From contig JACQUR010000066.1 in NCBI GenBank assembly GCA_016210245.1, positions 1 through 36,552 on the forward strand: 36,552 nt of DNA, in the 5' to 3' direction. This DNA is from Chloroflexota bacterium (GTDB lineage: Bacteria; Chloroflexota; UBA6077; JACQUR01). The position numbers were made by a program, and so were the translations under genes. Shown piece by piece: positions 1 to 35,803 of the stretch (the first letter of the stretch is position 1; the number at the start of each line of letters is the position of its first letter). The notes under the pieces were generated by a model. That model worked only from the letters and a program-made list of their open reading frames with translations. It was not told the DNA's origin and did no database searches.

Positions 1-261
1 GTGCGGGGCTGGGGGGCCTACTTCCGAGTGGGCAACCCCAGTCGCCACTTCACCCTGTCCGGATTGATGAGGAGAGGCTGGAAACGGGGCCAGGTCTCGG
101 GCGGCAGCGCCTGCAAGTACTGCGTGGACAGCGCCGGACCCAACAGCCACCGTGCCAGTCTCCTACTCTACCCCAGTGGCCAGTGGTCAGTGGCCACTGG
201 CCAGTGCTTCTGCCTTCTGCCTTCTGCCTCCTGCCCCCTCACCGCCGGAGCTCCTCGATGA
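1..261 (+). pseudogene. 5'-truncated ORF. The first ~16 codons resemble the group II intron maturase (GIIM) core motif and the rest is unrecognisable. Probable remnant.
   Basis: Translation begins RGWGAYFRVGNPSRHF, close to the GIIM pattern R-G-W-x-N-Y-[YF]-x-x-G-N-x-x-x-x-F. The downstream residues do not continue the family pattern. The frame stays open only by running through heptamer repeats and the antisense of the next gene. Confidence 0.25.
174..234. repeat. Two adjacent heptamer arrays: CAGTGGC x3, ending in the palindrome CAGTGGCCACTG, then CTTCTGC x3 plus a degenerate CTCCTGC
   Basis: Read directly: cagtggc cagtggt cagtggc cactggccagtg (174-206), then cttctgc at 207, 214 and 221 and ctcctgc at 228. 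The arrays lie immediately 3' of the epimerase stop (239-241, minus strand). Confidence 0.9.
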
Positions 262-1177
262 AGTCGCGCAGGCCGGCCTCCAGGTCGTAGCGCGGCTCGT
301 AGCCCAGCTCCGCCCGCGAGCGGGAGAGGTCGAACGGCTGCAGGCGCGGGAACCGGTCGGGGCGCGGCGGGGCGACGCGCACCGCGGTGGTGCCGGGCAG
401 GATGCGCTGCAGCGTCTCCACGATGAGCTGCGGGGTGACCAGGACGCCACTGCCCAGGTTGTAGACCTGGTGAGGCAGGCGCTCGGCGCGGGCGGCCAGC
501 GCCACCCCGTGGGCTAGATCCTTGATGTAGACGTTCTCGTCGACCGGCGGGAAGCCGCTGCCCAGGGGAGCCGGGCGCCCCTCCAGCGCGGCCTTCACCA
601 GGTCGTACATCCCCTGGCCGATGCCGGACCCGCCCGCGTAGTGGCCGTAGCCGTAGACGCCGGCGAAGCGCAGGATGGCCAGTTCGAACTTGTAGGCGGC
701 GGCGTAGGCCCGCAGGATCTGCTCGCAGGCGACCTTCGAGCCGCCGTAGACCTGCCCGGCGCCGCTGGTTGGGAAGTCCTCAGTGAGCGGGGCCGGCTGC
801 GGCTGCGAGAGGTCGTTGACGCCCAGAGTGCTGGCGTGCAGTAGCCGCCGCACCCCGGCCAGGCGCACCGCCTCGGCCACGTTGAGCGTCCCGCCAATGT
901 TGATCTGGAAGCCGCGGTAGGGCACCTGCTGGGCAGCGGTGCCGATCAGGGCGGCGGTATGGATGACCACCTCCGGCCGGACCTCCTGGATCGCCTCCAG
1001 CAAGCCCGGCAGCTCGCGGATGTCGCCCCGCACCACGCGCACGTCGCCGTCGACGACGCGCTGCACGTAGTCCTGGCGCGGCGCAAGGTCGAAGAACGTG
1101 ACCTGGTCCCCGCGCTGGACCAGCTCGCGGGCCGTATGGCAGCCGACCATCCCGGCGCCAGTGATGAACACGCGCAT
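239..1177 (-). CDS. NAD-dependent epimerase/dehydratase (extended SDR family)
   Basis: Rossmann motif FITGAGMVG at the N-terminus and catalytic Y-x3-K (YGGSK). ATG at 1177 is preceded by AAGGGGG. A GTG at 1180 is the alternative start. Confidence 0.85.
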   Translation of the reverse strand: MRVFITGAGMVGCHTARELVQRGDQVTFFDLAPRQDYVQRVVDGDVRVVRGDIRELPGLLEAIQEVRPEVVIHTAALIGTAAQQVPYRGFQINIGGTLNVAEAVRLAGVRRLLHASTLGVNDLSQPQPAPLTEDFPTSGAGQVYGGSKVACEQILRAYAAAYKFELAILRFAGVYGYGHYAGGSGIGQGMYDLVKAALEGRPAPLGSGFPPVDENVYIKDLAHGVALAARAERLPHQVYNLGSGVLVTPQLIVETLQRILPGTTAVRVAPPRPDRFPRLQPFDLSRSRAELGYEPRYDLEAGLRDFIEELRR

Positions 1178-1199
1178 CACTCAACCCCCTTGCTCAGTC

Positions 1200-1227
1200 G
1201 ATTTTGGATTTTGGATTTTGGATTCCG
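1200..1227. repeat. Heptamer tandem repeat GATTTTG x3 plus degenerate GATTCCG
   Basis: gattttg at 1200, 1207 and 1214 and gattccg at 1221. It fills the spacer between the CoxL-like stop (1239) and the epimerase start (1177), both on the minus strand. Confidence 0.9.
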
Positions 1228-1238
1228 ATGGCCACTGA

Positions 1239-3599
1239 CTACTGCCGGCGCGCTGCCGCGATCAGGTCCCGCACCCGGGTTGGGCTGAGCGGGCCGCGGG
1301 TAATCTTGACGCCGAATGGGGCCAGCGCGTCTTCGACCGCGTTGGCGTAGGCGGCCGGAGGGGAGATGGCGCCCCCCTCACCCAGCCCCTTGATGCCCAG
1401 CGGGTTGCGGGGCGAGGGCGACTCCAGGTGCGCCACCTCGAAGTGGGGAATCTCGGCCGCGGTCGGGACCAGGTAGTCCATCAGACTGGCGGTGAGCAGT
1501 TGCCCCTCGCCGTCGTACACCAGCTCCTCGAACAGCCCGCCGCCGATGCCCTGGGCCACCCCGCCATGGACCTGCCCCTCCACGATCATCGGGTTGATCA
1601 TCCGCCCGCAGTCGTGCGCGATGGCGTACTTCAGCGTCCGCACCTGGCCGGTCTCGACGTCGACCTCGACCACCACTGCGTGAGCGCCATTGGTGTAGGT
1701 GACCGTGGGCGGCTCGTAGTAGACCGTGGCCTCCAGGCCGGGCTGCAGGTCCGCCGGCCGCGGCCGACCCGGCTCCAGCGCCTGGGCCACCTCACCCAGG
1801 GACACCTTGCGCCCGGGCAGGCCGACCACCTGGACCTGCCCGTTGCGGATCTCCAGGTCGTCCGGGTGGGCCTCCAGCAGTTGCGCGGCCATCTTCAGCG
1901 CCCTGGCGCGCACCTCGCCCGCCGCCGCGGCGACGGCGTTGCCGGCCGTGACGCCGCTGCGGCTGGCGATGGTGCCGTAGCCGTGAGTCAGGCCGGCCGT
2001 GTCGCCGCCGACGATGGTCACGTCGGCCAGGTCGACCCCCAGGTGGTCGGCGCAGATCTGGGCGAACACAGTCTGGTGGCCCTGGCCCTGCGAGCAGGCG
2101 CCGGTGTAGACGACGACCTTGCCGCTGCCGTCCACGCGGACCACCGCGCCCTCGAACGGGCCCACGCCCGTGCCCTCGACGTAGCTGGAGGTGCCCACCC
2201 CGAGGTAGCGCCCCTGGGCGCGCAACTCGGCCTGCTGGGCGCGCAGCCGCTCGTAGTCGACTAGGGCGAGCGCCCGGCGCATGGTCTCCGGGTAGTCGCC
2301 GCTGTCGTAGACCAGGGGCTGGCCGTCGCGGTAGAGCAGTCCGGCGTCGTAGGGCATCTCGTCGGGTCGGACCGAGTTCCTGAGCCGCAGCTCGGCCGGA
2401 TCCATGCCCAACTGGCGCGCGGCGCAGTCGATCACCCGATCCACGGCAAACACCGCCTCGGGCCGCCCGGCGCCCCGGTACGGTGCAGCCGGCACCTTGT
2501 TGGTTACCACGCACCGCGCCTCGACCCACAGGGCCGGCACGCGGTACGGCCCCATGAGGTGGGCGACCGTGTTGTGGGGCATGGCCAGCCCGAGGTGGTT
2601 GTAGGGGCCGTTATCAATAAGGAAGCGGTCGCGCATGCCCAGGATGCGCCCGTCCGCGTCGAGCGCGAGCTCGATGTCGTGGATCTGCTCGCGGGCGTGA
2701 ATGGCGCTGCGCAGGTGCTCCAGTCGGTCCTCGATCCACTTGACCGGGCGGCCAAGGCGCAGCGCAGCCAGGGCGACCAGCACGTCCTCGGGATAGAGGA
2801 TGGCCTTGATGCCGTAGCCGCCGCCCACGTCCGGGGCGATCACCCGCACCGTGAACTGGGGCAGCCCAAGCAAGTGGGCGATCCCCTGGCGCAGCGGGTG
2901 GGCGTTCTGGGTGGCCGACCAGACCATCAGCTCGCGCCGCTCGGGATCGTACTCCGCTACCGCTCCGCGCGTCTCGATGGTGATGCCCGTGTAGCGATGG
3001 ACGTAGAACCGCTCGCGCACCACGTGGTCGGCGCGCTGGAACGCCTGGTCTACGTCGCCCTTCTGGACGGTGAAGCGAACGCACACGTTGTCGCCCCAGG
3101 CCTCGTGCAGCAGCGGGGCGTCGGGCTGGAGGGCAGCCTCCACGTCGGCCACGGCCGGCAGCGGCTCGTAGTCGACCTCCACCAGCTCGGCCGCGTCCTC
3201 GGCCAGGTAGCGGCTCTCGGCGATGACCATGGCCACCGCCTCACCCGCGTAGCGGACCTTGTCCGGCGGCAGCAGGAAGCTATCGTCGGCCTTGACCTCC
3301 GGCTTCAGGAACTCGACCAGCGCCTTCGGCGCCGTCTTGGCCAGAAAGGGAGGCATGGGCCTGGCCGCCGCGCCCAGGTCGGCGAAGGTGAGGACGGCCG
3401 CCACCCCTGGCAGGGCCAGAGCCGCGCTGGTCTCGATGCCCTTGATCCGAGCATGAGCGTGGGGGCTGCGGACGAAGGCCGCGTGGAGCTGCCCCGGCCG
3501 CTCGATGTCGCCCACGAACCGCCCCCTGCCACGCAGCAACTGCCCATCCTCCACCCGGCGCACCGGTCGCCCGAACCATCCGTCGCTCTTGGCGCTCAT
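1239..3599 (-). CDS. Xanthine dehydrogenase/aerobic CO dehydrogenase family molybdopterin-binding large subunit (form-II CoxL-like)
   Basis: The family-like sequence starts at MSAKSDGWFGRPVRRVEDGQLLRGRG (ATG at 3599-3597, with AGGAGGG 4 nt upstream). The 85 upstream codons in the ORF track look non-coding. The motif PYRGAGR matches the AYRGAGR-type loop of form-II CoxL-like proteins. Confidence 0.85.
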   Translation of the reverse strand: MSAKSDGWFGRPVRRVEDGQLLRGRGRFVGDIERPGQLHAAFVRSPHAHARIKGIETSAALALPGVAAVLTFADLGAAARPMPPFLAKTAPKALVEFLKPEVKADDSFLLPPDKVRYAGEAVAMVIAESRYLAEDAAELVEVDYEPLPAVADVEAALQPDAPLLHEAWGDNVCVRFTVQKGDVDQAFQRADHVVRERFYVHRYTGITIETRGAVAEYDPERRELMVWSATQNAHPLRQGIAHLLGLPQFTVRVIAPDVGGGYGIKAILYPEDVLVALAALRLGRPVKWIEDRLEHLRSAIHAREQIHDIELALDADGRILGMRDRFLIDNGPYNHLGLAMPHNTVAHLMGPYRVPALWVEARCVVTNKVPAAPYRGAGRPEAVFAVDRVIDCAARQLGMDPAELRLRNSVRPDEMPYDAGLLYRDGQPLVYDSGDYPETMRRALALVDYERLRAQQAELRAQGRYLGVGTSSYVEGTGVGPFEGAVVRVDGSGKVVVYTGACSQGQGHQTVFAQICADHLGVDLADVTIVGGDTAGLTHGYGTIASRSGVTAGNAVAAAAGEVRARALKMAAQLLEAHPDDLEIRNGQVQVVGLPGRKVSLGEVAQALEPGRPRPADLQPGLEATVYYEPPTVTYTNGAHAVVVEVDVETGQVRTLKYAIAHDCGRMINPMIVEGQVHGGVAQGIGGGLFEELVYDGEGQLLTASLMDYLVPTAAEIPHFEVAHLESPSPRNPLGIKGLGEGGAISPPAAYANAVEDALAPFGVKITRGPLSPTRVRDLIAAARRQ

Positions 3600-4622: not shown

Positions 4623-5147
4623 ATGGTGAACGCGCTTGCTCAGCCGAGTGCTATCAAGCGGAAGCGTGATTGCCTGCGCTCCGTCGGGATCTTCGAGCGC
4701 TTGCCGGAGCAGGCGCTGGATCACCTGGCGTTGCTCTGCGAGCACCACACCTGCTCCGATGGTGAGATCGTGTTTCGGCAGGGTGACCGGGGCGACCGCA
4801 TGTACCTGGTGGAGTCCGGCCGGGTCCTGCTGTTCTACTCGGATGCCGCCGGGAATGTCCGCCAGTTGGCAACCGTCGAGCCGGGCGGCTACTTCGGCGA
4901 GCTGGCGCTGCTCTCGAACAACCCGAGGGCGGCGAGCGCCGAGTGCGAGGGCGAGACGGAGTTACTCAGCCTCTCGGGCCACGACCTGAAACGGCTGCTG
5001 GCCGAGAGCGCGCCGGCGATGCGCGGCCTCATCGGGGCAACCAGGGCGTACGAGCCTCCCCAGCGCTGCCCGAGGTTCTGGGAGCGGTTCTGGCCGGGGC
5101 GCGCTCGCGGGCGCGGCCAGCCCAACCGGAAGCGAGATGCGGCTTGA
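4623..5147 (+). CDS. Cyclic nucleotide-binding (cNMP/Crp-like) domain protein
   Basis: cNMP-binding signatures GGYFGELALL and PRAASAEC. ATG at 4623 is preceded by GGTGGAG with 5-nt spacing. The ORF-track GTG at 4584 is an alternative start. Confidence 0.8.
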   Translation: MVNALAQPSAIKRKRDCLRSVGIFERLPEQALDHLALLCEHHTCSDGEIVFRQGDRGDRMYLVESGRVLLFYSDAAGNVRQLATVEPGGYFGELALLSNNPRAASAECEGETELLSLSGHDLKRLLAESAPAMRGLIGATRAYEPPQRCPRFWERFWPGRARGRGQPNRKRDAA

Positions 5148-5338: not shown

Positions 5339-5599
5339 GTGGCGCGGGAGACGGCCTCGAGCCTCGAGCTGCAGCTCTCCGGCCCGATCGTGTTGTCGGC
5401 GCGCGCCAAGCTGAGCCTGCCGCGTCTCTTCAGGCTGGAGCAGGATGTCGCTCAGGTGGCAGGGGCGGCCGACGCGAGGCTCGAGGTCCTGGAGGATGGC
5501 CATGTCGTGGTCCACGTGCCGCCTCAGACGAGGACCCGGGTGCGCGAGTTCCTCATCCTGGAGGGTGAACTGGTGGAGGGAAACGCTGATGGCCAGTAA
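5339..5599 (+). CDS. Hypothetical small protein. The 3' end is firm and the start is uncertain.
   Basis: The only protein-like frame between 5150 and 5599. Its stop overlaps the next gene's ATG (ATGGCCAGTAA). GTG at 5339 has AGGAG about 12 nt upstream. GTG at 5231 is an alternative start. Confidence 0.4.
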   Translation: MARETASSLELQLSGPIVLSARAKLSLPRLFRLEQDVAQVAGAADARLEVLEDGHVVVHVPPQTRTRVREFLILEGELVEGNADGQ

Positions 5600-6851
5600 C
5601 TCGAGCCCGGGCCGCGGTCTCCTGCTCTGCACGAACGACGCCTCGGTGCTTGGAAGCGCCGGGGCGCTCGGCGCCGTGGGCTACGCGCCCATCCGCTGCT
5701 CGTCGTTCAAGGAGTTTCAGCGCGAGTTCGGCGGCGGGGTCGTGGCGGTGGTGCTCGACGCCGAGCTCCCCAAGCGCGAAACCTTCGCCATCTACCGGGC
5801 CCTGCGCCAGGAGGGCAAGGCGCCGTTCCTCGTCCTGCTTCCACCGCCCAGCTCGGATCAGCCCGCATGGACGATCGACCTGGAGCAGGGGGAGCAAGAG
5901 GAGTTCGCGCGCAAGCCCATCACCACCCCGGAGCTGGTCCTGCGGCTCAACGCGCAGTTGATCCGCTGCGGCGCCGTCGTGCCCGATGGAACCGGGTTCG
6001 AGGTCGCACCCAGCTCGCGGGCCGCGGCCGCGCTCGCGGGCTACGGCACGGTCATCTGCGTCTTCGGCGCCCACGGGGGCGTGGGCAAGACCACCATCGC
6101 GGTCCACCTCGCCCTCGGCCTGGTGCAGTTCACGCAAGCGCGTGTGGCGTTGATCGATGGCGACCTGTGGTCGGGCGACAGCCTGGTGGCCCTGGACCTG
6201 ACCAGCACCCGGACCATTCTCGACGCGACTGCCAACGGCCTGCCCCACGATCCGGAGGTCTGGACCCACGTCCTGGTCGAGCATCGCAGCGGGCTCAAGG
6301 TCCTGGCCCCGCCCTCGCGCCTGGAGGACGTGGAGCGGGTGCCCGAAGGCGCCGTGGCGGCGGCCGCCCAGGGCTTGCGCCGCTACTTCGACTTCGTGGT
6401 GGTGGACCTGGACGACGCGCTGACCGAGCAGACGCTCCAGGTGCTCGAGCAGGCAGACCTGGTGCTGGTGGTCACGACCCCCGAGTTTGGCTCGCTGCGC
6501 AACACGGTCCGCTTCCTGACCGTCGATTCGCAGATCCGCTTGAACAATCACGTTCGGGTCGTGCTCAACCGCTCCAACGCGGGGCTCGACCTGAAACAGG
6601 TCAAGTCGGTCATCCCGCACCCCATCATGGCCATGGTGCCCAGCGACGGACACCTGTTCCTTGCCGCCTGGAACCATGGGTCCACGGTGTTCGAGGTGGA
6701 TGCCGCCGGCCACACCCAGGCCCGGCGAACGCTTGAGACGCTCGCACGCGACGTGGCGGAGCTGTGTCGCCCCGAGGCAGCCAACGCCAGGGGCGGCGGC
6801 TTCTCCCCGCTGTCGGCACTCCGTCGGAAGGTGCTGGCCAGCGCGAAGTGA
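5589..6851 (+). CDS. REC-like N-terminal domain fused to a CpaE/TadZ-MinD/ParA-type P-loop ATPase
   Basis: ATG at 5589 follows GGAGGG. The N-terminal part (LLLCTNDAS...VVAVVLDAELP...FLVLLPP) looks like a receiver fold. The P-loop is ICVFGAHGGVGKTTIAVHLA, followed by ALIDGDL, as in CpaE-like ATPases. Confidence 0.8.
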   Translation: MASNSSPGRGLLLCTNDASVLGSAGALGAVGYAPIRCSSFKEFQREFGGGVVAVVLDAELPKRETFAIYRALRQEGKAPFLVLLPPPSSDQPAWTIDLEQGEQEEFARKPITTPELVLRLNAQLIRCGAVVPDGTGFEVAPSSRAAAALAGYGTVICVFGAHGGVGKTTIAVHLALGLVQFTQARVALIDGDLWSGDSLVALDLTSTRTILDATANGLPHDPEVWTHVLVEHRSGLKVLAPPSRLEDVERVPEGAVAAAAQGLRRYFDFVVVDLDDALTEQTLQVLEQADLVLVVTTPEFGSLRNTVRFLTVDSQIRLNNHVRVVLNRSNAGLDLKQVKSVIPHPIMAMVPSDGHLFLAAWNHGSTVFEVDAAGHTQARRTLETLARDVAELCRPEAANARGGGFSPLSALRRKVLASAK

Positions 6852-6938
6852 AGACCGGCGGGCCGCACAGGCGAGCCGCCTGTGCCACTGGCTCGCCGGG
6901 CAATGGGCAGAAAGGCACGTGCCGAGGGTCTGCCTCGA

Positions 6939-6966
6939 CTGCCTTCTGCCTTCTGCCTTCTGCCGC
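6939..6966. repeat. Heptamer tandem repeat CTGCCTT x3 plus degenerate CTGCCGC. Same unit, in cyclic permutation, as the array at 207-234.
   Basis: ctgcctt at 6939, 6946 and 6953 and ctgccgc at 6960. It sits between the convergent gene ends at 6851 (+) and 6973 (-). Confidence 0.9.
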
Positions 6967-6972
6967 CTGGAC

Positions 6973-7560
6973 TCAGGGCCGCGGCGGCTGGTCCATGCGC
7001 CGGGCGAGCAGGATGTGGTGCTTGTTCACCAGCAGGCCGTCGGCGGCTCGGCCCTCGCCGGTGGGCGTGGTGAGCGTGGCGCGGCCGAACTCGAGGAACA
7101 GCTCCGTGGAACGCCGCAGCACGCCTGACAGGTCCATGTCCCGGAGCAGGTAGACGGGGCCGGCGATGGTGATGCGGGTGGTGAGCACGAGGCTCACTTC
7201 CATCGGAGCCATGCCCCGCGGCACGTAGGTCGAGGCAGGCATAGCCGGCGCCTCAGCCGTGCCCCAGGGCTGCACGTAGGTGACGTGGTCGACCGGCACC
7301 AGTAGCTCCGGTACTTCAGCTCCGTCCTGCACGTCTTCGGTGGAGGCGCGGGTGAGCGCCAGCACGTTGCCCATCTGGTTCAGATACTCGGCGATCCGCC
7401 CCGCGGCCGGCGGCGGCAGCGCTCCATACGCCTCAGCTCCGGTGCGGAGTCCCACCAGCGCCCACTGGAGCGGCGCTCCGCCAATTGGCGCCACGGCTGT
7501 TCTCCTCCCTGGTCCTGGTGTAACCGGCTCGGTCCTGTCGCAGGCGGGTGGTAGCGCCAT
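6973..7560 (-). CDS. Hypothetical protein (195 aa)
   Basis: The protein-like part of the 255-aa ORF begins at the internal ATG at 7560 (MALPPACDRTEP...). No family recognised and no clear RBS. Confidence 0.5.
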   Translation of the reverse strand: MALPPACDRTEPVTPGPGRRTAVAPIGGAPLQWALVGLRTGAEAYGALPPPAAGRIAEYLNQMGNVLALTRASTEDVQDGAEVPELLVPVDHVTYVQPWGTAEAPAMPASTYVPRGMAPMEVSLVLTTRITIAGPVYLLRDMDLSGVLRRSTELFLEFGRATLTTPTGEGRAADGLLVNKHHILLARRMDQPPRP

Positions 7561-7852
7561 CGCATGATGGCGTAGTGAAGTGTAGCACGGAAGTCCTCTA
7601 CCGCCAGACTCCCCGTCGGCTCGCGTTGAGCAGCCGCCCCGCTCCAGGCGCTCCTGCCCCGCTGGTGGGCGCTCGGGTGAGGCGGGGAAGCCTCGGCGGG
7701 CCAGGGGTAGCGCGCGAGTACGTTCGTGCCGCCGTGCCATGCTATAGTGCTGCAGGGTGCGCCCGGCCGAGGGCGACCTGGCAGGCGGGAGCGAGGGGTC
7801 GACCGAGCCCGCCCGCCGAGTGCGTGGAGACGCTGATTACGGGGTAGCCTCG

Positions 7853-26835: not shown

Positions 26836-27156
26836 CGCCTTCTCTCCAGGGGGTGAACGCCCTTCGGCCGGGACCACCCGGCCGAAGGCGTTCCTGGGGC
26901 TCAGTCGCCAGCGCTATTGCTCCATGCCGTGCGGCAAGCGGGCAAGCTACTGGCGCCACGCCGACAAGCGCCGGGCCGAGAAACGCGAGCAGTACCACCG
27001 ACGGAAAGGCCAGCCCGCGGGCGAGGTGCCACCGGGGCAGGATGGCCAAGGCAGCGCGTAGCGTGCTCTGAGACGCACGTAGGGCCACAGGGCTCTTCGG
27101 CGCTCGGGGTGCGACTCCATGTAGCCGATGCCGAGGTCGGCGAGGGTGGGTCTATC

Positions 27157-27187
27157 GTCTGGCGGTAACACGATGTTAGCGCCAGAC
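27157..27187. repeat. Hairpin GTCTGGCG-GTAACACGATGTTAG-CGCCAGAC. Its core is near-identical to array spacer 2.
   Basis: Outer 8-bp arms are perfect complements. The inner GGTAACACGATGTTA (15 nt) is identical to the minus-sense reading of spacer 2. Confidence 0.85.
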
Positions 27188-27265
27188 GCACGTGGAAGGC
27201 CGACAGGGCTCTTCTCGGCTCAGGGTGGCTCCTGGACCACCGCAGGGTTGTGCGGGATCTCGGTC

Positions 27266-27688
27266 CTACCGCCACCCCAGCCGAGCCGCGATGGCGACCA
27301 GGATGCCCCGACGGCGCAGGTAGAACGTCTCGCGGCTGATGCACAACTCGTCGGCCACCTGCTGCACGGACCAGTGTCGCCAGTAGGCCAGCTCAACCAA
27401 ACGCCGATGCTCGAGTGGCAACTGCTCGTAGACAGCGTGGATGGTGTCCACCACGCGGGCCATTTCGCGCAGCAGACAGTCACTCGCCAGCAGGGTGGCG
27501 GCAAAGCCCGTAGGGTCGCTCACTCGGTGGGAGCCGCCGTGCAGACGGGTGTAGTCCCGCCCGAGCCCCTGGGTAGCAATCTCCTCACGGCGCTGCTCCA
27601 CGGCACGCCGCGTCTCCTGGTACGCCCGCAACTCGGCTTCCAGGAGACGGGCGGTTTCGGGGCGAAGGCGCGTATCGGCACACGTCAT
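27266..27688 (-). CDS. Sigma-70 region-4-like / phage late-activator-like (RinA/ArpU-style) regulator
   Basis: LPLEHRRLVELAYWRHWSVQQVADELCISRETFYLRRRGILVAIAARLGW is a region-4-type HTH. Its ATG overlaps the upstream stop (ATGA at 27685-27688). Confidence 0.65.
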   Translation of the reverse strand: MTCADTRLRPETARLLEAELRAYQETRRAVEQRREEIATQGLGRDYTRLHGGSHRVSDPTGFAATLLASDCLLREMARVVDTIHAVYEQLPLEHRRLVELAYWRHWSVQQVADELCISRETFYLRRRGILVAIAARLGWR

Positions 27689-27915
27689 TGGGCGTGCTGC
27701 TGGCGAAAGGCGTTGAATCTGGCCAGAGCCGCCTGCTGCTCGGGCGTGATGGCCGCGCCTGAGCCCGCGGACTGCCGCGCTCGTGCCAGCCCTTCGAGCA
27801 AATCCAGGTCGGCGTCGCTCACCTGGGACAACGCCCGCGCGGTCGCCACGTCGGCGCTCGGCGAGGCAGGCTCCCGCTGTTCCAGGCGTTGAATGCGTCC
27901 GCTCAACTTGCACAC
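27685..27915 (-). CDS. Island hypothetical protein (76 aa)
   Basis: Translationally coupled at both ends: a 13-nt overlap upstream and an ATGA overlap downstream. The sequence is helical. Confidence 0.55.
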   Translation of the reverse strand: MCKLSGRIQRLEQREPASPSADVATARALSQVSDADLDLLEGLARARQSAGSGAAITPEQQAALARFNAFRQQHAQ

Positions 27916-28310
27916 GGTCGTGCCTCCTTCCGTTGCGCCGCGCCCGCCTCCAACTCGGCCACCCGCCGCTCCAGGTTCTCACTCTCACGCAGCCTGACGC
28001 CCAGCTCCAGAATCGCTTTCGCCGCGCCCAACCTGGTGGCAGGCGGGCCGCTCGCCAGCAATCCCCGCAGGGCGGTTACCGCCTCGCCCGAGGCCGCGCC
28101 CAGGGCAGCCACCGCCGATGCCAGCGTCGCAGCCTGCGCCGCGGCCAACTGGCTGCGGAAGGCGGGATCTGCCAGTCGACGGCGTACCGTCCGCTCGCTG
28201 ACGCCCGCCTGCTTGGCCGCGCTCTGGAGAGTCTGGCCGCCCGACAAGGCGACCACCAGGGCCGAATCGGCGCTGTGGCGGCCATTGGCGGCCACTGGCG
28301 GCCTCATCAC
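27903..28310 (-). CDS. HTH protein of the type often annotated as phage small terminase / HTH_23-like
   Basis: LSGGQTLQSAAKQAGVSERTVRRRLADPAFRSQL, followed by ...RLGAAKAILELG...ENLERRVAELE. An ATGA overlap links it to the upstream gene. Confidence 0.6.
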   Translation of the reverse strand: MMRPPVAANGRHSADSALVVALSGGQTLQSAAKQAGVSERTVRRRLADPAFRSQLAAAQAATLASAVAALGAASGEAVTALRGLLASGPPATRLGAAKAILELGVRLRESENLERRVAELEAGAAQRKEARPCAS

Positions 28311-28756
28311 GCGCCCGCCATGAGCAGGGCCAGGCTCGTCCGCCGCGCGGCCAACTTCTCCTCGGACGCAGCGTGCCGCCGTCGCCGCGCGGCCAGTTCG
28401 CCCTCGGCGTCCCGAATCGCGGCCGCGCTGGTCGCTACCTGGTTCTCGGCATCCGCGATGCCGTGATGCAGGCCGACGATTACCATCTCCACGTCGCCGC
28501 GCACGGTCGCTGCCCGCTCGCGCTGGCGGGTTAACTCGAGCGCTCGGCCCCGTAGGCGGGCGAGAACTAGTTCCAAGCCGTCGCGCTGGCTCACCAGCCT
28601 GGCCAGCGTCGATGGGTCGGGGGGCGCCACGTCGAACGCGCGGTTCAACTCAGCCAGTTCGTGTTCCCGCCGTTGCACCTCGCGGCCTGCGTCCTGCTCC
28701 CGCTGTTGCGCCTGCTGCTCCTGCTCGATTGCTTGGGCCAGTGTTATCGTTGCCAT
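28307..28756 (-). CDS. Island coiled-coil protein (149 aa)
   Basis: ATG at 28756 follows AAGGAG. The sequence is Gln/Glu/Arg-rich with heptad-like character. Confidence 0.6.
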   Translation of the reverse strand: MATITLAQAIEQEQQAQQREQDAGREVQRREHELAELNRAFDVAPPDPSTLARLVSQRDGLELVLARLRGRALELTRQRERAATVRGDVEMVIVGLHHGIADAENQVATSAAAIRDAEGELAARRRRHAASEEKLAARRTSLALLMAGA

Positions 28757-29032
28757 GACGTTGCTCCTTGTTGCGTTGGGTTGGGGCCGAACGGGTTAGC
28801 CTGCCATTCGTGCTCGGCAAGGAACGCCTTGAGACTACCGCGCCGCATCAGCCTGTCTCGCTGGCCCGCTACCACGCCTTGCTCGGGTGCCGTGAGCGTC
28901 GCGGTCGGCACGTCGACCACCCAGGCCGTTGCCAGGGCGCCGTGAGCGTCGCCCGAGCAAGGCGTGGTAGCGGGCCAGCAACTCGCCCACCGTCCTGGGT
29001 GGGGTCGGGGTGGTCGTCTGCGTCGACTTCAC
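28744..29032 (-). pseudogene. Small island gene whose coding signal switches frame inside an inverted repeat (frameshifted or recoded)
   Basis: GTG at 29032 overlaps the upstream TGA (GTGA) and reads VKSTQTTTPTPPRTVGELLARYHALLG with very high third-position GC. Past about 28950 the +1 frame carries the coding-like signal (DAHGALATAWVVDVPTATLTAPEQGVVAGQRDRLMRRGSLKAFLAEHEW...) and ends at the TAA at 28744. Confidence 0.35.
28861..28978. repeat. Perfect 27-bp inverted repeat separated by 64 bp, with a 14-bp direct repeat on the inner side of each arm
   Basis: ctggcccgctaccacgccttgctcggg (28861-28887) and cccgagcaaggcgtggtagcgggccag (28952-28978). gccgtgagcgtcgc occurs at 28889-28902 and 28939-28952. 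Confidence 0.95.
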
Positions 29033-29502
29033 CTTCGCCCCTCCAATCCGCCCCGCTGCACCTCGACCACGGCCATGACAGCCCGTGCCGCCGCCTCCGT
29101 GCAGGGCAGGCAGCGGTAGATCCGCTCTGGTAGCAGTTCAGCACCGCACCCCAAGCATGCCTGCGGTCGGGGCAGCAGGTGGTCGGGCTGGGCAGGGTAG
29201 AGCGGCAAGCCCTGCTCGCACCAGGAGCAGCGCTCGGCCTGCTGCTCGGGGTAACTCAGCCAACGGCGATGGGTCGGGCAGTAGCCACCCATGTCGGCGG
29301 GCAACAACAGCGGGGGTGCCGCAACGGTTGCGAGTTGCTGGTCAGCCAGGATGCGCAACAACTCGGGCTTGTGGGCCAGCAGTTCGGCCTTCAACTCGGG
29401 TGTGAGTGTACCCCTGGGCGCGCTCACACGCAGGTGCTCACCATCGACTCTCAGGCGCACGTCCGCCGCGCCCAGTCGCTCCAGTAATGTGGCCGCGCTC
29501 AT
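29029..29502 (-). CDS. Protein with a TubC-N-like docking-type N-terminus and a Cys-rich (zinc-ribbon-like) C-terminus
   Basis: LLERLGAADVRLRVDGEHLRVSAPRGTLTPELKAELLAHKPELLRIL, then CPTH...CSWC...CLGC...CLPC. Confidence 0.65.
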   Translation of the reverse strand: MSAATLLERLGAADVRLRVDGEHLRVSAPRGTLTPELKAELLAHKPELLRILADQQLATVAAPPLLLPADMGGYCPTHRRWLSYPEQQAERCSWCEQGLPLYPAQPDHLLPRPQACLGCGAELLPERIYRCLPCTEAAARAVMAVVEVQRGGLEGRR

Positions 29503-30863
29503 AGCTGGGCCTCCTCTCGTTCGGTCGGGGTGGGTGCCCAGGGCAGTTCGCCCCCGAAGGTGCTCATCGGGGGCTGAAGGTGCTCATTATTCTGGACGTG
29601 AGCATCTTCGGGGTGGATGAGCATCTTCGGGGGCAGTTGCCACGTCCAGGGCCCGGCCATGCCCTGCTTGGTGGGCGTGATGCCCAGGGCGGTCTTGGCT
29701 CGGCGCAGCGTAATCTCGCTGATGCCTGCCGCTCGCGCCTCGCGCTGTACGTCTTTCGCTGGGCTCGGCCCGTCCGCCAGCAGCTCGCGCAGGAAGTCCC
29801 TTGCCTCGGCCAGCGCGCCCCGTTCCTCCCCGTCGGCGCTCTGTGCCAGCAGTGATGACGCAGTGTGTTGCACCGCACCCTCCCAGACCACGCGCACGGC
29901 GCCGCCTGCAACAGCCTCCAGGTGGTAGGCCAGCGCTGGCGGGGGCTCGGACAGGTTAGACTTGCTGCTGGCCAGGATGCGACGCGCCCCGTCGGGCAGG
30001 TCAGGGTCTGGCGCCACCAGCAACCCGCTCCGCACGGCGCCAATGATGCCGATGCTACCGCCGCCACGATAGAGCGGGTTGCCCCCCGTCGCCTTGTTCA
30101 GGTGGCGCACGGCCACCACGGCTACGTCTGTTTCGGCAGCTAAGGCGGCCAAGGGTGCCAGCACTCGCCGCACGTCCGCGTCGCGGAAGCTATTGGTGGC
30201 GCTGGGTAGAAACGCCATCACGGGATCCACGACCACCAGTCGGGCGTCGACGCGGGCGATGGCCTCGCGGATGGCGTCCAGGTCGGCCACAGTCGGCAGG
30301 TCCGGGCGCGCCGTCGCCGGTCGCTCGGGGTCGGGACTGGGTTCGAGCCGCAGCACTGCCTTGAGCGCCACGATGCGCGATACATCCGCCCCGGCCGCAT
30401 CTAAGCGGGGACGGATGGTATCGGCTAAGTCATCCTCAGCAGACAACAACACCACTCCGGCCGGCCCATCCAGGTCGCTCCGGGCGCCGTCGGGCATGGT
30501 GCCCCCCACGCTCACCCTGGCGGCCAGGTCTGTGGTGATGGCGGATTTGCCCAAGCCTGGGTCCCCGTCCAAAACGGTGAGTTTGCCCAGGGGCACACGC
30601 CCAGGCCACAGCCAGGAGACGCGCTCGGGCTGCACGTCGGCCAGCGAGACCAGGACCGCCCCCGTGGCTGGGGCGGGTTGAGGCGGGGGCATGGTGGTTG
30701 CGGGTGGCGCCGCGTGGTCCTGCCCGTTGCGGGTGGCGCCCGTCGCCGTCTCGGGCCCGGGCTCGCCAGCGCGCAACAGCGTGAACTGCCAGTGCGCACC
30801 GTCGAAATGGTCCCGGTAGTGCTCGCCCTGCTCGGGACGGCACTGAGCGATGCAGTCGTGCAT
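29499..30863 (-). CDS. AAA_25/RepA-like (RecA-fold) replication ATPase
   Basis: WLWPGRVPLGKLTVLDGDPGLGKSAITTDLAARVS (Walker A), VVLLSAEDD, and the C-terminal HTH-like ARAAGISEITLRRAKTALGI. I chose the ATG at 30863, which overlaps the upstream stop (TGATG). Confidence 0.8.
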   Translation of the reverse strand: MHDCIAQCRPEQGEHYRDHFDGAHWQFTLLRAGEPGPETATGATRNGQDHAAPPATTMPPPQPAPATGAVLVSLADVQPERVSWLWPGRVPLGKLTVLDGDPGLGKSAITTDLAARVSVGGTMPDGARSDLDGPAGVVLLSAEDDLADTIRPRLDAAGADVSRIVALKAVLRLEPSPDPERPATARPDLPTVADLDAIREAIARVDARLVVVDPVMAFLPSATNSFRDADVRRVLAPLAALAAETDVAVVAVRHLNKATGGNPLYRGGGSIGIIGAVRSGLLVAPDPDLPDGARRILASSKSNLSEPPPALAYHLEAVAGGAVRVVWEGAVQHTASSLLAQSADGEERGALAEARDFLRELLADGPSPAKDVQREARAAGISEITLRRAKTALGITPTKQGMAGPWTWQLPPKMLIHPEDAHVQNNEHLQPPMSTFGGELPWAPTPTEREEAQL

Positions 30864-31114
30864 CACGCTGCACCCCGCTGGTCGCGGCAGTAGCAGCACC
30901 CGCACGGGTCGGGCAGTATGTTCCGCTCCGCCGCCACCTCGGCCGGCGGGATGGTCGCACGGTGGCACCCGCTGCCCACCGGCGGATACGCGGGCACCAG
31001 CCGACCGGCGGCGCCCTGCCGCCAGGCGCCCAGCAGCTCGCACACCACGATACCGTCCCTATAGCTGCGCAGCACGCGATGGCCGCGGGGGCAGTGGGTC
31101 GTATCAGTGGCCAC
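30863..31114 (-). CDS. Small Cys-rich island protein (83 aa)
   Basis: High third-position GC. Cys/His clusters HCPRGH, VVCE, GCH and PCGCCYC. It is coupled to both neighbours. Confidence 0.5.
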   Translation of the reverse strand: MATDTTHCPRGHRVLRSYRDGIVVCELLGAWRQGAAGRLVPAYPPVGSGCHRATIPPAEVAAERNILPDPCGCCYCRDQRGAA

Positions 31115-31304
31115 TGCCCGCCACCTCGGCCATGCGGTCGCGGACGAACCGCTCGACCTCGGCCGCCGGGACGCGCATGGCCGAGCCGACGCGGATGGCC
31201 CGTAGCTCGCCGCGGGCGAGTAGCTCGTACGCGACCGTGCGGCTCACGCCCAGCGCCTCTGCCGCTTCCGCCACGCGGTACAGGACTCGTCCTACTGCTG
31301 CCAT
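31104..31304 (-). CDS. Excisionase/AlpA-MerR-like HTH DNA-binding protein
   Basis: LYRVAEAAEALGVSRTVAYELLARGELRAIRVGSAMRVPAAEVERFV is the classic Xis-type HTH_17 pattern. RBS is GGAGGT. Confidence 0.8.
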   Translation of the reverse strand: MAAVGRVLYRVAEAAEALGVSRTVAYELLARGELRAIRVGSAMRVPAAEVERFVRDRMAEVAGSGH

Positions 31305-31325
31305 GTCATACCTCCGTTCGGGCAG

Positions 31326-31398
31326 TTGCGTTCCGCCCGTGTCCGTAGTATACTATTCCCGATGTGGCGAAAGGGTCGGCACATCGCGGCCACATCGC
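31326..31398. promoter_or_regulatory. Divergent switch region: TTGCGT-N17-TATACT promoter with a palindromic -10 (AGTATACT), plus operator-like repeats
   Basis: TTGCGT at 31326-31331 and TATACT at 31349-31354. AGTATACT reads the same on both strands. GATGTGGC at 31361-31368 is inverted relative to GCCACATC at 31389-31396. CACATCGC is direct at 31380 and 31391. Confidence 0.4.
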
Positions 31399-31426
31399 CA
31401 TTTCAGTGGGGCGGGAGGGAGGCGAC

Positions 31427-32131
31427 ATGCCACAGAAGCCGATAGCCCAGGATTGGCGGGACCAGGTGTACACCCTGTGCGGCTCGGGCAGGAAGCGCTC
31501 AGTCGTAGAGATGTTCCAGCTTCTAGAGGCGGAGGGAATCAGGCTCGGGCGAAACGACTATCCGAGCAAGCGCTCACTCAACCGAATCCGAGACGACTTC
31601 CACCGGCTGCCCGAGCCGCAGCAGCGCGAGTACGGCCAGGTACGCTGGCCAGACAGCTTCGGGCGGGGCGACCTCCCCTGGGAGGCCGGCCGCGCGGCGC
31701 TGGACTTGCTCCGCTTCCACGATGAGCAGGGGCTCGACCGTCCAACCGTGCGCCATGTCCGCTGGTTCTGGCGCGTGGGCATGGCGGCTCCTGGAATCCC
31801 CACCCAGGACGCGGACCGGTTGTCCGAGCACCTTGCCACTGCCGAGTTTTTGGCCGTGGCCAATCTCGGGACCACGGAGGTTCAGGGGCTCGAATGGCTG
31901 CTCGCCTACCAGCCGTGGCGGAGCGACGATGATGCCGCGGCCTACCAACGCCTGGCCGCACGGCAGGACGTACCCAGGTATCCCACGCTGGTGGCGACCA
32001 GCGTCCTGGATGGCACCCCCGAGGCGCTCAGGAGCTTCTATCAGGCTCTGCTCGGCCCCACGTCCGGACAGGAGCGGTACGAGCAGGTCGCCCGTGCCCT
32101 CTATAAGGAAGGAGAGGCCACCGATGGCTAA
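31427..32131 (+). CDS. Island hypothetical protein (234 aa) upstream of and overlapping the integrase
   Basis: ATG at 31427 follows GGGAGGGAGG. It overlaps the integrase start by 8 nt. No family recognised. Confidence 0.65.
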   Translation: MPQKPIAQDWRDQVYTLCGSGRKRSVVEMFQLLEAEGIRLGRNDYPSKRSLNRIRDDFHRLPEPQQREYGQVRWPDSFGRGDLPWEAGRAALDLLRFHDEQGLDRPTVRHVRWFWRVGMAAPGIPTQDADRLSEHLATAEFLAVANLGTTEVQGLEWLLAYQPWRSDDDAAAYQRLAARQDVPRYPTLVATSVLDGTPEALRSFYQALLGPTSGQERYEQVARALYKEGEATDG

Positions 32132-33275
32132 GCAACGCGGCCGCCGTGGGCACGGGGAGGGTTCGATTCATCAGCGCGAGGATGGCCGCTGGGTGGCGGT
32201 CGTCGACCAGGGTTGGAAGGACGGCAAGCGCCAACGCAAGTACCTCTACGGAGAGACGCGCAGGGAGGTGAGCGAGAAGTTGAAGGCAGCGCTGCACGAC
32301 CAGGCGGCAGGCCTGCCGTTGCCCTCAGAGCGGCAGACGGTGGGCCAGTTCCTGGAGCGCTGGTTAGAGGATTCGGCCAAGCCCAATGTACGCCCCCGGA
32401 CCTTCACCCGCTACCACGACCTGCTCACCCTGCATGCCATCCCGACGCTCGGCAAGCGCCCCCTGGCCAAACTCTCGGCCCAGGACCTCCAGGCGCTGTA
32501 CGGCCAGAAACTTGACCAGCTCGCCGCGCGCACGGTCGGCCACCTCCACCGGGTGCTGCATTGCGCGCTACGGGACGCGCTGCGCTGGGGGCTGGTGGCG
32601 CGGAACGTGTGCGATGCCGTCCAGCCGCCCAAGGTGGCGCGCCCGGAGATGCAGGTGCTTGCGCCCGAGCAGGCGCGCCAGTTGCTCGCCGCTGCCGATG
32701 GGGAGCCCCTGGAGGCGCTGTACGTGCTGGCCGTCACGGCCGGACTGCGCCAGGGCGAGTTGTTCGGCCTGAAGTGGCAGGACCTCGACCTCGAGGCCGG
32801 CCGGCTCCAGGTGCGCCGCACCCTGGGCCGTGTGCGCAAGCAGGGCTTCCTGGAGAGCGAGCCCAAGAGCGCCCGCAGCCGCCGCAGCATCACCCTCACG
32901 CCCCTGGCCATCGGCGCGCTTCGGCACCACCGGGCGCGCCAACTCGAGCAGCGGTTGGCAGTCGGCTCGGCCTGGGAAGACCGCGGGCTGGTCTTCTGCA
33001 ACGCGGTCGGTCGGCCCCTGGAGCCCAGCAACCTGCTGCGCCGCTCGTGGCGGCCGCTGCTGAAGAAGGCTGGCCTGCCCCGGATCCGCTTCCACGACTT
33101 GCGCCATACCGCAGCCACGCTCCTGCTCGCCCAAGGGGTGCATCCCAAGATAGTTCAGGAGATGCTCGGCCACAGCACCATCAGCCTCACCCTGGACACC
33201 TACTCCCACCTCCTGCCCAACCTCCAGGACGAAGCGGCCGCCAAGATGCAGGCCATCCTGGTCCGCCTGAAGTAG
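32124..33275 (+). CDS. Tyrosine recombinase / phage integrase
   Basis: ATG at 32124 follows AAGGAAGGAGAGG. The N-terminal arm/SAM-like region is GSIHQREDGRWVAVVDQG...KRQRKYLYGETRREV. The catalytic region is GLRQGEL...RFHDLRHTAATLLL...LGHSTISLTLDTYSH. Confidence 0.9.
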   Translation: MAKQRGRRGHGEGSIHQREDGRWVAVVDQGWKDGKRQRKYLYGETRREVSEKLKAALHDQAAGLPLPSERQTVGQFLERWLEDSAKPNVRPRTFTRYHDLLTLHAIPTLGKRPLAKLSAQDLQALYGQKLDQLAARTVGHLHRVLHCALRDALRWGLVARNVCDAVQPPKVARPEMQVLAPEQARQLLAAADGEPLEALYVLAVTAGLRQGELFGLKWQDLDLEAGRLQVRRTLGRVRKQGFLESEPKSARSRRSITLTPLAIGALRHHRARQLEQRLAVGSAWEDRGLVFCNAVGRPLEPSNLLRRSWRPLLKKAGLPRIRFHDLRHTAATLLLAQGVHPKIVQEMLGHSTISLTLDTYSHLLPNLQDEAAAKMQAILVRLK

Positions 33276-33294
33276 CCCGCGCGGCACCCGAACC

Positions 33295-33335
33295 AAACGC
33301 CCCGGCATGGTCCCGAAGGCCATCCCGGGGCGTTT
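33295..33335 (+). terminator. Intrinsic terminator of the integrase gene
   Basis: AAACGCCCCGG (33295-33305) pairs with CCGGGGCGTTT (33325-33335). It lies 20 nt after the stop. Confidence 0.65.
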
Positions 33336-33356
33336 GGCTGTCAGTTAGGCTGTCAA
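33336..33356 (+). repeat. Arm-type repeat pair GGCTGTCAG-N3-GGCTGTCAA (right end)
   Basis: gtttggctgtcagttaggctgtcaa, the counterpart of 25774-25794. Confidence 0.6.
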
Positions 33357-33443
33357 GCGGGCGGGCTGCCCGCGCCCAGGGTCGGAAACCCTCCCGAAAA
33401 CCACAACATCTTGTGGTTGACCGCATCAAAACCACAAGATGTT

Positions 33444-33519
33444 GGGTAGCCCCGGGGCGACTCGAACGCCCGACAAACGGTTTAGGAAACCGCTGCTCTA
33501 TCCTCTGAGCTACGGGGCC
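33444..33519 (-). tRNA. tRNA-Arg (anticodon CCU). The 3' terminus encodes CCC rather than CCA.
   Basis: Hand-folded cloverleaf: acceptor GGCCCCG/CGGGGCT (G1-U72), D arm GCTC-AGAGGATA-GAGC, anticodon arm GCGGT-TTCCTAA-ACCGT, variable TTGTC, T arm GGGCG-TTCGAGT-CGCCC, discriminator A. Confidence 0.9.
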
Positions 33520-35102: not shown

Positions 35103-35282
35103 TGCACGTAACCGGCGCGTAACTCACGGCCGAGCAGGAAGGCCACCACCCAGCCCGCCACGAACAAGGCCATCTGAGCAGGCTCCACCAGCGTCCCCAA
35201 CAGCAGCGTGCCACCCACGCGGGATGGCCAGGTGCGCATTATGGGACGCCAGAACCGGCGGCGTCAAGGCGCGGCCGAGCTT

Positions 35283-35338
35283 GAGTGCTGAGTGCTGAGT
35301 GCTGAGTGCTGAGTGCTGAGTGCTGAGTGCTGAGTGCT
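35283..35338. repeat. Heptamer tandem repeat GAGTGCT x8. Same unit as the arrays upstream of gyrB.
   Basis: Eight exact copies read directly. The array ends 10 nt before the stop of the four-helix-bundle gene. Confidence 0.95.
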
Positions 35339-35348
35339 GAGAGAAGAG

Positions 35349-35738
35349 TTATTTGTTTGGTTTGACGTTTTTTCTTTGTTTTTCAACAGAAACTCGAAGA
35401 CCACCTATAACTCTGGAAACCTCTTCTGATTGAAGGCGTAGTTGGTCGAATCGAGATTGATCCAGATAGCCCACATCGAACGCAACATAGAGGTGTGAAC
35501 GAACCTCAGCACAAGAAGATTTTGCTGTGGAAAGAAATTGATGAAATTCTCCCAATCCACTTCTCTCGAAGCCCTCGGCAACATTTGACATGATAGAAAC
35601 GGCCGCTCGTTGAATTTGCCCGGATAGTCCAAAGTCTTTAACGAATTTGCCCTGTCGAGAGACTTCGTAGACCGCACGAGTTAATGCTCTGGCTTTCTGC
35701 CAAGCGATCAGCTCTTCAAACCTCTCTACTTTGCTCAT
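35349..35738 (-). CDS. Four-helix-bundle protein (23S rRNA intervening-sequence protein / Avd-like family)
   Basis: [20 protein letters not shown]...[20 protein letters not shown]...[23 protein letters not shown] matches the family pattern. Two 60-nt lines counted by hand are 45% G+C, against about 70% in the flanks. Confidence 0.85.
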
Positions 35739-35768
35739 CGTTCATCCTCTTAACTCTTGATGTTTTTA

Positions 35769-35803
35769 CTCAGGACTCAGGACTCAGGACTCAGGACTCA
35801 GGA
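35769..35803. repeat. Heptamer tandem repeat CTCAGGA x5
   Basis: Five exact copies. The DUF423 stop codon (35798-35800) lies inside the last copies. Confidence 0.95.

Follow-up and report, generated by a model that had tools for sequence, protein, structure and literature searches.

What are the short tandem repeats that lie at the gene ends of a Chloroflexota contig, and how are they related to the foreign gene that two of them enclose? The stretch of DNA analysed here (36,552 nt, positions 1 to 36,552 of contig JACQUR010000066.1, assembly GCA_016210245.1; hereafter the window) has a G+C content of 69% and carries tandem arrays of 7-nt units, about one every 4 kb; the units are of at least seven kinds within 36 kb. 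Two of these arrays stand on either side of a gene of the PF05635 family, that of the S23p proteins of 23S rRNA intervening sequences (IVS), and we call this arrangement (35282-35805) the cassette. We consider it somewhat probable that the arrays change by slippage, that they typically form polar inverted pairs anchored at stop codons, and that the pair bearing the PF05635 gene is the non-rRNA counterpart of an IVS element. What appears to be new here is a PF05635 cassette enclosed by repeats and found in many phyla; heptamer-rich genomes of high G+C, inverted pairs and 7-nt slippage were already known. The cassette association links two features that have gone unexplained for decades, tandem heptamers and the S23p/23S-rRNA-IVS protein family, and if it holds genome-wide each of the two would become an experimental handle on the other.

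A PF05635 gene lies between inverted heptamer arrays

Arrays were detected with Tandem Repeats Finder (TRF) and an exact-periodicity scan over the whole window, and genes were called from the G+C content of third codon positions (GC3) and from Pfam. The original prediction, made from the letters of this DNA, had listed the arrays at 35283 and 35769 as separate features. They are instead an inverted pair: (TGAGTGC)8.6 at 35282-35341 and (ACTCAGG)5.4 at 35768-35805 (plus strand, both by TRF and exact scan) are partners around a gene at 35349-35738 on the minus strand, whose 129-aa product is a 'four helix bundle' protein of PF05635/TIGR02436 (23S rRNA intervening-sequence protein, S23p; Pfam 7e-34, TIGR02436 2e-30). 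TGAGTGC differs by a single base from TGAGTCC, the complement of ACTCAGG, and the two arrays pair in the minimum-free-energy fold at 6 of the 7 nt of each unit. Read on the strand of the gene, the cassette consists of (TCCTGAG)5, a leader with a ribosome-binding site, the open reading frame (ORF) and (AGCACTC)8; the G-rich 5' arm, (TCCTGAG)n, lies 29 nt upstream of the start codon, and the C-rich 3' arm, (AGCACTC)n, begins 7 nt past the stop. The gene has a G+C content of 0.44 and a GC3 of 0.36, against a GC3 of 0.91 in neighbouring genes, which marks it as a recent import. A PMT_2 gene adjoins the cassette on one side and a DUF423 gene on the other.

The only relative of the protein in the PDB is 2GSC (Xanthomonas XCC0516, 1e-12). 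A weak PHROGs match (E = 1.5e-4) points to the Avd family of diversity-generating retroelements, in which Avd is the adaptor for the reverse transcriptase; Pfam scans of the window ORFs revealed no reverse transcriptase domain, the neighbours of the cassette being the PMT_2 and DUF423 genes just mentioned. PADLOC, which annotates anti-phage defence, gave no match for the protein.

IVS elements provide the precedent for this layout. In them the S23p ORF lies within a 28-bp stem, RNase III excises the element, and it is horizontally transferred and regarded as selfish (PMC4990558). Like the IVS with S23p ORFs of Leptospira and Coxiella, the cassette has a PF05635 ORF within complementary termini, foreign composition and signs of horizontal transfer. 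It differs from them in lying between protein-coding genes and not in helix 25/45 of 23S rRNA, and in having a stem made of tandem heptamers; an Rfam scan of the window returned tRNA only and no rRNA. The full-length form of the element that we propose would be a spacer carrying the PF05635 gene, that is, a selfish IVS-like cassette with arrays as its stems.

Heptamer arrays bracket PF05635 genes in other phyla

Period-7 repeats bracket PF05635 genes in this contig and in at least seven other phyla, and the phyla with array-flanked homologues include Armatimonadota, Cyanobacteriota, Bacteroidota, Gemmatimonadota and Pseudomonadota. Two samples support this, one starting from the repeats and the other from the protein. 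A metagenome scan for (GAGTSCT)x3 listed at least 120 contigs (609 kb, G+C 0.32-0.72), three of which (L134, L099 and L140) carry a 52-67% identical PF05635 gene in the cassette layout. For the second sample homologues were chosen by protein similarity and not by repeats. The window protein has 6424 relatives at E <= 1e-20; the best 120 of these are 73-82% identical to it, and the sources named among them are Armatimonadota (Chthonomonas), an Actinobacteria metagenome-assembled genome (MAG), Hydrogenedentes and Anaerolineae. The spread of homologues of 73-82% identity over several phyla, beside unrelated genes, is a sign of horizontal acquisition. In all five independent contexts fetched through the protein (a 3.4-Mb contig, the Chthonomonas calidirosea genome and three restriction-modification or BREX (bacteriophage exclusion)-like operons), phased TGAG heptamers lie upstream of the gene and CTCA heptamers downstream, and within the protein-fetched loci, of 3-20 kb, arrays are concentrated at the PF05635 gene and rare elsewhere.

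More distant homologues (30-43% identity) were taken from plasmid records, with Nostocales dominant and Chroococcales, Riemerella, Gemmatirosa and Azospirillum also present. A period-7 or period-8 array lies on at least one flank in 21 of the 22 records, mostly as inverted complements with the purine-rich arm upstream, where the background of the same lag-7 identity score is 0.2-0.5% of random 100-nt segments. The units vary (GGGGAAA, AAGGTTY, TCAGGAG, GGGTGTA, GGGAGTA, GAGGACG, AAAAGCT and the 8-nt CTCCTGCC), and genes flanked by period-8 arrays occur in Gemmatirosa and Picosynechococcus. The lag-7 score with its controls was adopted because the duplex energy of the flanks failed to discriminate, random high-G+C flanks averaging -57 kcal/mol. 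In Xanthomonas, GGGAATC repeat #15 overlaps the annotated start of XCC0516 (Rehm et al. 2015, supplementary table, PMC4692102). An incomplete literature search found no statement of a link between PF05635 and repeats.

Array-flanked PF05635 genes were also seen inside operons of plasmid and metagenome loci (L305, L306, L311, L312, L287, L293): in the cas10/cmr3 and cas6/cas4 gaps, between ribonucleotide reductase genes, and in restriction-modification or BREX-like clusters. Annotations usually assign PF05635 cassettes that lie within CRISPR-Cas, restriction-modification or BREX-like operons to the system itself. The Xanthomonas PF05635 gene adjoins bccP. The BREX-like operon of L293 has CTCA-phased arrays in one orientation at 381-405, 3243-3267, 5026-5050, 5583-5600 and 13585-13609, in or between long ORFs; in the CTCA orientation arrays are free of stop codons, and gene calls may run through them.

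Inverted pairs are polar and fold into stable hairpins

The window contains further inverted pairs, four of them long hairpins with no ORF. At 14662-14740 (plus strand) TRF reports a period of 8 (CCCCGCGT x4.1); the octamers form inverted arrays, GGGACGCG-type then CGCGTCCC-type, which occupy the spacer from a stop at 14652 to a GTG start at 14741 and fold at -80.3 kcal/mol (14655-14745, z -9.4). At 17470-17581 (plus strand) (TGAGATT)n and GCAGART units are followed by their complement, giving 55-nt arms that are 93% complementary; TRF resolves (AGATTTG)4.4 and its complement with period 7 at 17477-17507 and 17544-17574, and the region 17465-17585 folds at -82.5 / -83.7 kcal/mol (z -16.6 / -13.6). 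This hairpin occupies the 119-nt spacer between the stop of a glycosyltransferase gene (17585) and the start of a GH57 gene (17465), both on the minus strand. The third, at 19374-19433 (plus strand), is a palindrome of the degenerate heptamers GGTGGGA GGTGGGA GGTTGAA GGCTGGA and their complement (97% complementary; TRF period 7 at 19375-19432); the stop of gene 19441-20637 (minus strand) is 7 nt away, and 19368-19440 folds at -62.9 kcal/mol (z -10). The fourth, at 21826-21915 (plus strand), consists of (GAGTGCT)n, an inner G+C-rich stem-loop (21861-21882) and (AGCACTC)n (TRF period 7 at 21825-21858 and 21885-21915), and folds at -81 kcal/mol (21820-21920, z -11.2). Its left arm contains the stop codon of gene 20815-21840, and the gyrB ribosome-binding site GGAGG and start (TTG 21928 or GTG 21937) follow directly after its right arm. 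Arrays put 50-bp perfect duplexes and Shine-Dalgarno-like repeats directly before essential genes such as gyrB.

The arms have a fixed polarity. In all window hairpins the G-rich arm is 5'. Among the at least 120 contigs listed for (GAGTSCT)x3, 30 hold 32 pairs in which (GAGTSCT)n is followed within 150 nt by (AGSACTC)n, against one pair in the opposite order, and of nine inverted pairs built from other units, eight place the G-rich arm on the 5' side. A phased TGAG pattern is present in exactly three convergent pairs of the window (17482/17545, 21831/21886 and 35282/35769) and has no match in 1.21 Mb of control loci. The original prediction had favoured a length-specific mechanism over a mobile consensus element. 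This opposition is contradicted in part, since three pairs share a phased TGAG core, one of them around the foreign PF05635 gene, and PF05635 homologues in other phyla have the same repeat-bracketed layout.

In the mechanism that we propose, the typical element would read 5'-(G- or purine-rich unit)n, spacer, (complementary unit)n-3', beginning at or next to the stop of the upstream gene. The window would then hold one recently imported cassette (35282-35805), four long ORF-less hairpins (14662, 17470, 19374 and 21826), a shorter ORF-less hairpin (6905-6964) and a few arrays with no detectable partner. Judging by their shared architecture, and for two of them by the TGAG core, the ORF-less hairpins and the cassette are probably related. 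The arms may pair as an RNA duplex of 30-55 bp, which would let the element sit in an operon and be cut out or insulated. Arms of the TGAG type would present TGA in three frames to ribosomes arriving from either side, and the upstream arms are rich in Shine-Dalgarno-like motifs; both properties might help to make the element a harmless insert in an operon.

The hairpins could instead be RNA elements selected by the host, either intercistronic terminators or attenuators or REP (repetitive extragenic palindrome)-like stem-loops that stabilise mRNA, with repeats simply an easy route to long stems. Very stable hairpins do fill spacers between co-directional genes, and a hint of constraint comes from two loci whose flanks are 68% identical and which share an identical 80-nt array (L121 and L161). 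However, the four long hairpins (about -63 to -84 kcal/mol), which the original prediction had described as mostly without a U-tract, lack the mark of an intrinsic terminator: reading the sequence on either strand, we found no T-run after any of them. The types of spacer used are near random expectation with no bias of orientation, solo arrays do not fold, and related Chloroflexota and 80 other genomes manage without arrays. We regard a host RNA role as improbable for these reasons.

Arrays lie at or near stop codons

Every array lies in a spacer, although about 79% of the window is coding, and the distance from array to stop codon is 0-14 nt in every case, which bears out the earlier claim that the arrays sit in short spacers at gene ends. 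In two genes the stop is itself part of the repeat: that of gene 20815-21840 (21838-21840) and that of the DUF423 gene 35798-36184 on the minus strand (35798-35800) are each the TGA of the first repeat unit, so the arrays set the C-termini of both proteins. Arrays thus donate stop codons to their neighbours and alter annotated gene ends. Several hairpins occupy the entire gap between co-directional genes. The confinement of arrays to spacers would follow from 7 not being a multiple of 3. Arrays lie in tandem, convergent and divergent spacers about as often as random intergenic placement predicts. In L277 and L287 the stop upstream of the PF05635 gene likewise lies in the repeat (GAC GAG GAC TGA).

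The proximity of upstream arms to start codons bears on another explanation, namely that the arrays are binding sites of a sequence-specific DNA- or RNA-binding protein, or form non-B DNA such as G-quadruplexes (G4), as has been proposed for the Beggiatoaceae TAACTGA and Xanthomonas GGGAATC repeats. Besides these precedents in the literature (including PMC4692102), the Shine-Dalgarno-like motifs of the upstream arms stand right before start codons, and the G-rich GGTGGGA and GGGACGCG could form G4. Most units, among them AGATTTG, GATTTTG and GAGTGCT, could not; one binding specificity does not account for the seven or more units present in 36 kb; and the genes flanking the window arrays show no functional coherence. 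We think this explanation very unlikely.

Period 7 is specifically favoured

The exact-periodicity scan of the window found nine tandem arrays of at least three copies with period 7 and none with periods 4-6 or 8-15; the chance mean for period 7, from 200 first-order Markov simulations of the window, was 0.0. Nine heptameric sites had been predicted, and eight were recovered as such by TRF and the exact scan, the site at 14662-14740 being octameric. The same preference for period 7 appears in the 609 kb of the at least 120 listed contigs, which contain 163 exact period-7 arrays, 35 of them with other units, and 14, 3, 4, 4 and 3 arrays of periods 4, 5, 6, 8 and 9, respectively. We propose that arrays lengthen and shorten by slipped-strand mispairing, following Mrazek et al. 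2007. According to the summaries in PMC4679880 and PMC4692102, that work found that among long simple-sequence repeats heptanucleotides are the commonest kind in most prokaryotes, and that high-G+C Burkholderia, actinobacteria and Xanthomonas are among the species rich in them; it proposed that 7 nt corresponds to the DNA segment held by the polymerase, which would favour slippage. Of the earlier claims, then, length-specific generation at 7 nt holds insofar as period 7 is strongly and specifically favoured, but the idea had been published already; and the claim that such repeats are unusual for a high-G+C genome is not supported, given the repeat-rich species just named.

Orthologous junctions show that arrays change. 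L110 1153-1222 and L176 208-285 are orthologous junctions, 82% identical, with an inverted GAGTGCT pair whose copy number differs and whose loop is inverted, which indicates recombination between the arms. A more distant orthologous pair, L121 5267-5346 and L161 1300-1379, has an identical (GGACTCA)11.4 array between the diverged flanks mentioned above, followed at once by a ribosome-binding site and ATG; its identity reflects either a constraint on length or recent exchange.

The main rival reading is that slippage by itself accounts for the repeats, which would then be unrelated to any element; PF05635 genes would insert preferentially in existing repeats or hairpins, or arrays would nucleate at short inverted duplications made by insertion. 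In its favour, period 7 dominates generally, even in loci fetched by a permuted control unit, units vary from site to site, arrays far outnumber PF05635 genes, and the hypothesis is in print (PMC4692102, PMC4679880). Against it, arrays are concentrated at the PF05635 gene and rare elsewhere in 3-20-kb loci, and the layout is oriented to the gene (purine-rich upstream, complement downstream) across phyla and units; unbiased slippage would not give a polarity of 32:1. We judge slippage alone to be unlikely, and prefer slippage acting on arrays that belong to polar elements, some of which carry PF05635.

Assembly or amplification of a metagenomic contig might also have produced the arrays artificially. 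The window is indeed a single metagenome contig, and in other assemblies the repeats often stand at contig ends; arrays break short-read assemblies. The window arrays, however, are internal and flanked by intact genes whose stops lie within the arrays, and the same architecture occurs in finished genomes and plasmids (Chthonomonas, Nostoc and Riemerella, and Xanthomonas in published tables). An artefact is hardly conceivable.

Several observations weigh against the reading of the arrays as polar elements related to the PF05635 cassette. There is one PF05635 gene for about ten window arrays, and the GATTTTG, CCAGTGG, GGTGGGA and octamer units were never met beside a PF05635 gene in the loci examined; it is by architecture that they are tied to the cassette. 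Some PF05635 genes (Pseudanabaena, Chthonomonas) have direct instead of inverted arrays, and others have none (Calothrix PCC 7716, the viral L272 and a second copy in L278). No target-site duplication, empty site or transposase was found. The spacers of the ORF-less hairpins are mutually unrelated, unlike what a classical miniature transposable element would lead one to expect. Between the two arms the S position of the unit is frequently non-complementary, indicating that perfect pairing of the arms is not strictly maintained. The orientation of arrays relative to neighbouring genes and transcription showed no bias in crude gene calls. The relative L081 (76% GyrB identity) has no arrays. Finally, in viral contigs a permuted control heptamer gave 16 stretches where GAGTSCT gave 26.

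The last result led to one candidate being dropped, that GAGTSCT is a special conserved unit: since a composition-matched permuted heptamer is nearly as frequent in viral contigs, the wide occurrence of GAGTSCT alone is no evidence of a special sequence, and what was retained is the association of phased TGAG with PF05635. Viral contigs yielded one distant PF05635 relative, without arrays. As a negative control, 80 loci from other genomes, chosen by their GH57 protein and totalling 1.2 Mb, were scanned and held no period-7 array, synteny not being kept in them; this result and the absence of arrays from L081 indicate that the array density is specific to the lineage. Exact-sequence look-ups of three window proteins, aimed at further DNA of this genome, found no match. 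By eye, no direct duplication was evident beside 30 inverted pairs, although the repeat structure itself hides short duplications. Within the window there are no near-identical copies of an element, the hairpins differing in unit and spacer.

A wider proposal goes beyond the cassette itself, and we offer it tentatively, as possible rather than likely. PF05635 genes would define cross-phylum selfish intercistronic cassettes with polar inverted heptamer termini, and orphan arrays and hairpins, such as the STRR heptamers of Nostocales, the Xanthomonas GGGAATC repeats and the arrays of this contig, would be ORF-less derivatives, or would be made or propagated in trans via the PF05635 protein, which might, for example, serve a polymerase or reverse transcriptase as an Avd-like nucleic-acid adaptor. 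That machinery, and not generic slippage, would then account for the 7-nt period and for the 5' position of the G-rich arm.

Comparison with known repeat families

Like the heptanucleotide repeats of Mrazek et al., the window arrays are far above chance, favour period 7, are intergenic and belong to a high-G+C host. They differ in being dense, in having many units, in forming mostly polar inverted pairs at stop codons, and in the link to PF05635. In Xanthomonas, GGGAATC arrays number about 186, and convergent inverted pairs 70-75 in each genome (Rehm et al. 2015, PMC4692102), and array length varies between species at conserved junctions (PMC4692102). High G+C, intergenic heptamers and inverted pairs are shared with the window, and the PF05635 homologue XCC0516 abuts a GGGAATC array, a connection that the authors did not draw. 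A single unit, read as G4-forming, dominates in Xanthomonas, whereas the window has many, most of which could not form G4. In Geobacter metallireducens, heptamer families have been drawn as hairpins.

The short tandemly repeated repetitive (STRR) sequences of the cyanobacteria Calothrix and Anabaena, described in 1990, comprise several unit families (CCCCAGT, TTGGTCA and CAACAGT) and are usually described as direct arrays and not as hairpins. The window arrays resemble them in form, as the original prediction had noted, both being short tandem intergenic heptamers with several unit families per genome. Nostocales also dominate the plasmid matches of the window PF05635 protein, and those genes have heptamer-array flanks. 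No window unit is a rotation or complement of the three STRR units. The phylum and G+C content are different, and the host is no heterocystous cyanobacterium, its GyrB being nearest to Chloroflexota MAGs and Sphaerobacter.

TAACTGA repeats are found in Beggiatoaceae, Cyanobacteria and Bacteroidetes, with one indirect repeat among 169 sets (MacGregor 2015, PMC4679880). They share with the window arrays an intergenic position near start codons, a TGA core and a patchy cross-phylum spread that suggests horizontal transfer, but they have a single unit, are almost never inverted and have no reported link to PF05635. REP sequences, bacterial interspersed mosaic elements and miniature inverted-repeat transposable elements are likewise intergenic, hairpin-forming, often ORF-less and multicopy. 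In the window, by contrast, no consensus between copies, RAYT (REP-associated tyrosine transposase) or other transposase, or target-site duplication was seen, and the arms are internally periodic; specifically, the Pfam-scanned ORFs of the 36-kb window include no RAYT (IS200/IS605-like) gene, and no consensus is common to the sites.

Other arrays and features of the window

The remaining arrays are shorter. At 173-206 (plus strand) lies an imperfect (CCAGTGG)4.9 (TRF period 7), which includes the palindrome CCAGTGGCCACTGG with a 12-bp stem (-26 kcal/mol, z -2.6). It is followed at 207-235 (plus strand) by a C-rich (CTTCTGC)4.1 (TRF and exact scan), the end of which is 3 nt from the stop of an epimerase-family gene (239-1180, minus strand); its unit is similar to the C-rich arms beside the PF05635 genes of Stanieria, Nostoc PCC 7120 and Gemmatirosa. 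The solo array (GATTTTG)3.6 at 1200-1224 (plus strand; TRF and exact scan), whose fold is not significant, lies in a 58-nt spacer between two minus-strand genes, a molybdopterin-binding dehydrogenase gene with its stop at 1239 and the epimerase gene with its start at 1180. The array (CTGCCTT)3.7 at 6939-6964 (plus strand; TRF and exact scan) is placed between two convergent genes, 5445-6851 (plus) and 6973-7740 (minus), and has a short G-rich 5' partner, GGGCAGAAAGGCA, at 6905-6917; the region 6890-6975 folds at -41.6 kcal/mol (z -2.8). Two units, CTGCCTT and GTGCTGA, occur twice in the window, which agrees with the predicted recurrence at distant sites.

Outside the window, the viral-labelled contig IMGVR_UViG_3300005578_000008 (40.8 kb; L211, L218, L219, L223 and L227) has at least 14 GAGTSCT arrays, a density comparable to that of the window. 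Composite nested arrays of (CGGATTG)n, (GAATTAC)n, (CACTCAG)n and (CAATCCG)n occur at L122 3060-3290 and L187 540-720, and show that several units can stack in one spacer.

At the start of the contig, positions 1-171 (plus strand, frame 1) are open (...RGWGAYFRVGN...CKYC...) and run into the first arrays without a stop. This peptide resembles the C-terminus of a reverse transcriptase/maturase, but it has no Pfam match and the candidate was set aside. An integrated element of 7.8 kb (25624-33488), which contains no heptamer array, is bounded by a 44-nt perfect direct repeat (25624-25667 and 33445-33488), the second copy of which is the 3' part of a tRNA-Arg-CCT gene on the minus strand. It carries a tyrosine integrase gene (31722-33275), an AAA_25/RepA-like gene (29499-31043) and four 61-nt iteron-like repeats (25848-26062). 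The gyrB gene (21928-25326) is split by an intein: in the ORF read from 21841, Pfam Intein_splicing covers residues 482-954, which separate the GyrB domain from the Toprim domain. The N-extein shares 85% identity with one JGI protein, about 76% with Chloroflexota MAGs and 72% with Sphaerobacter.

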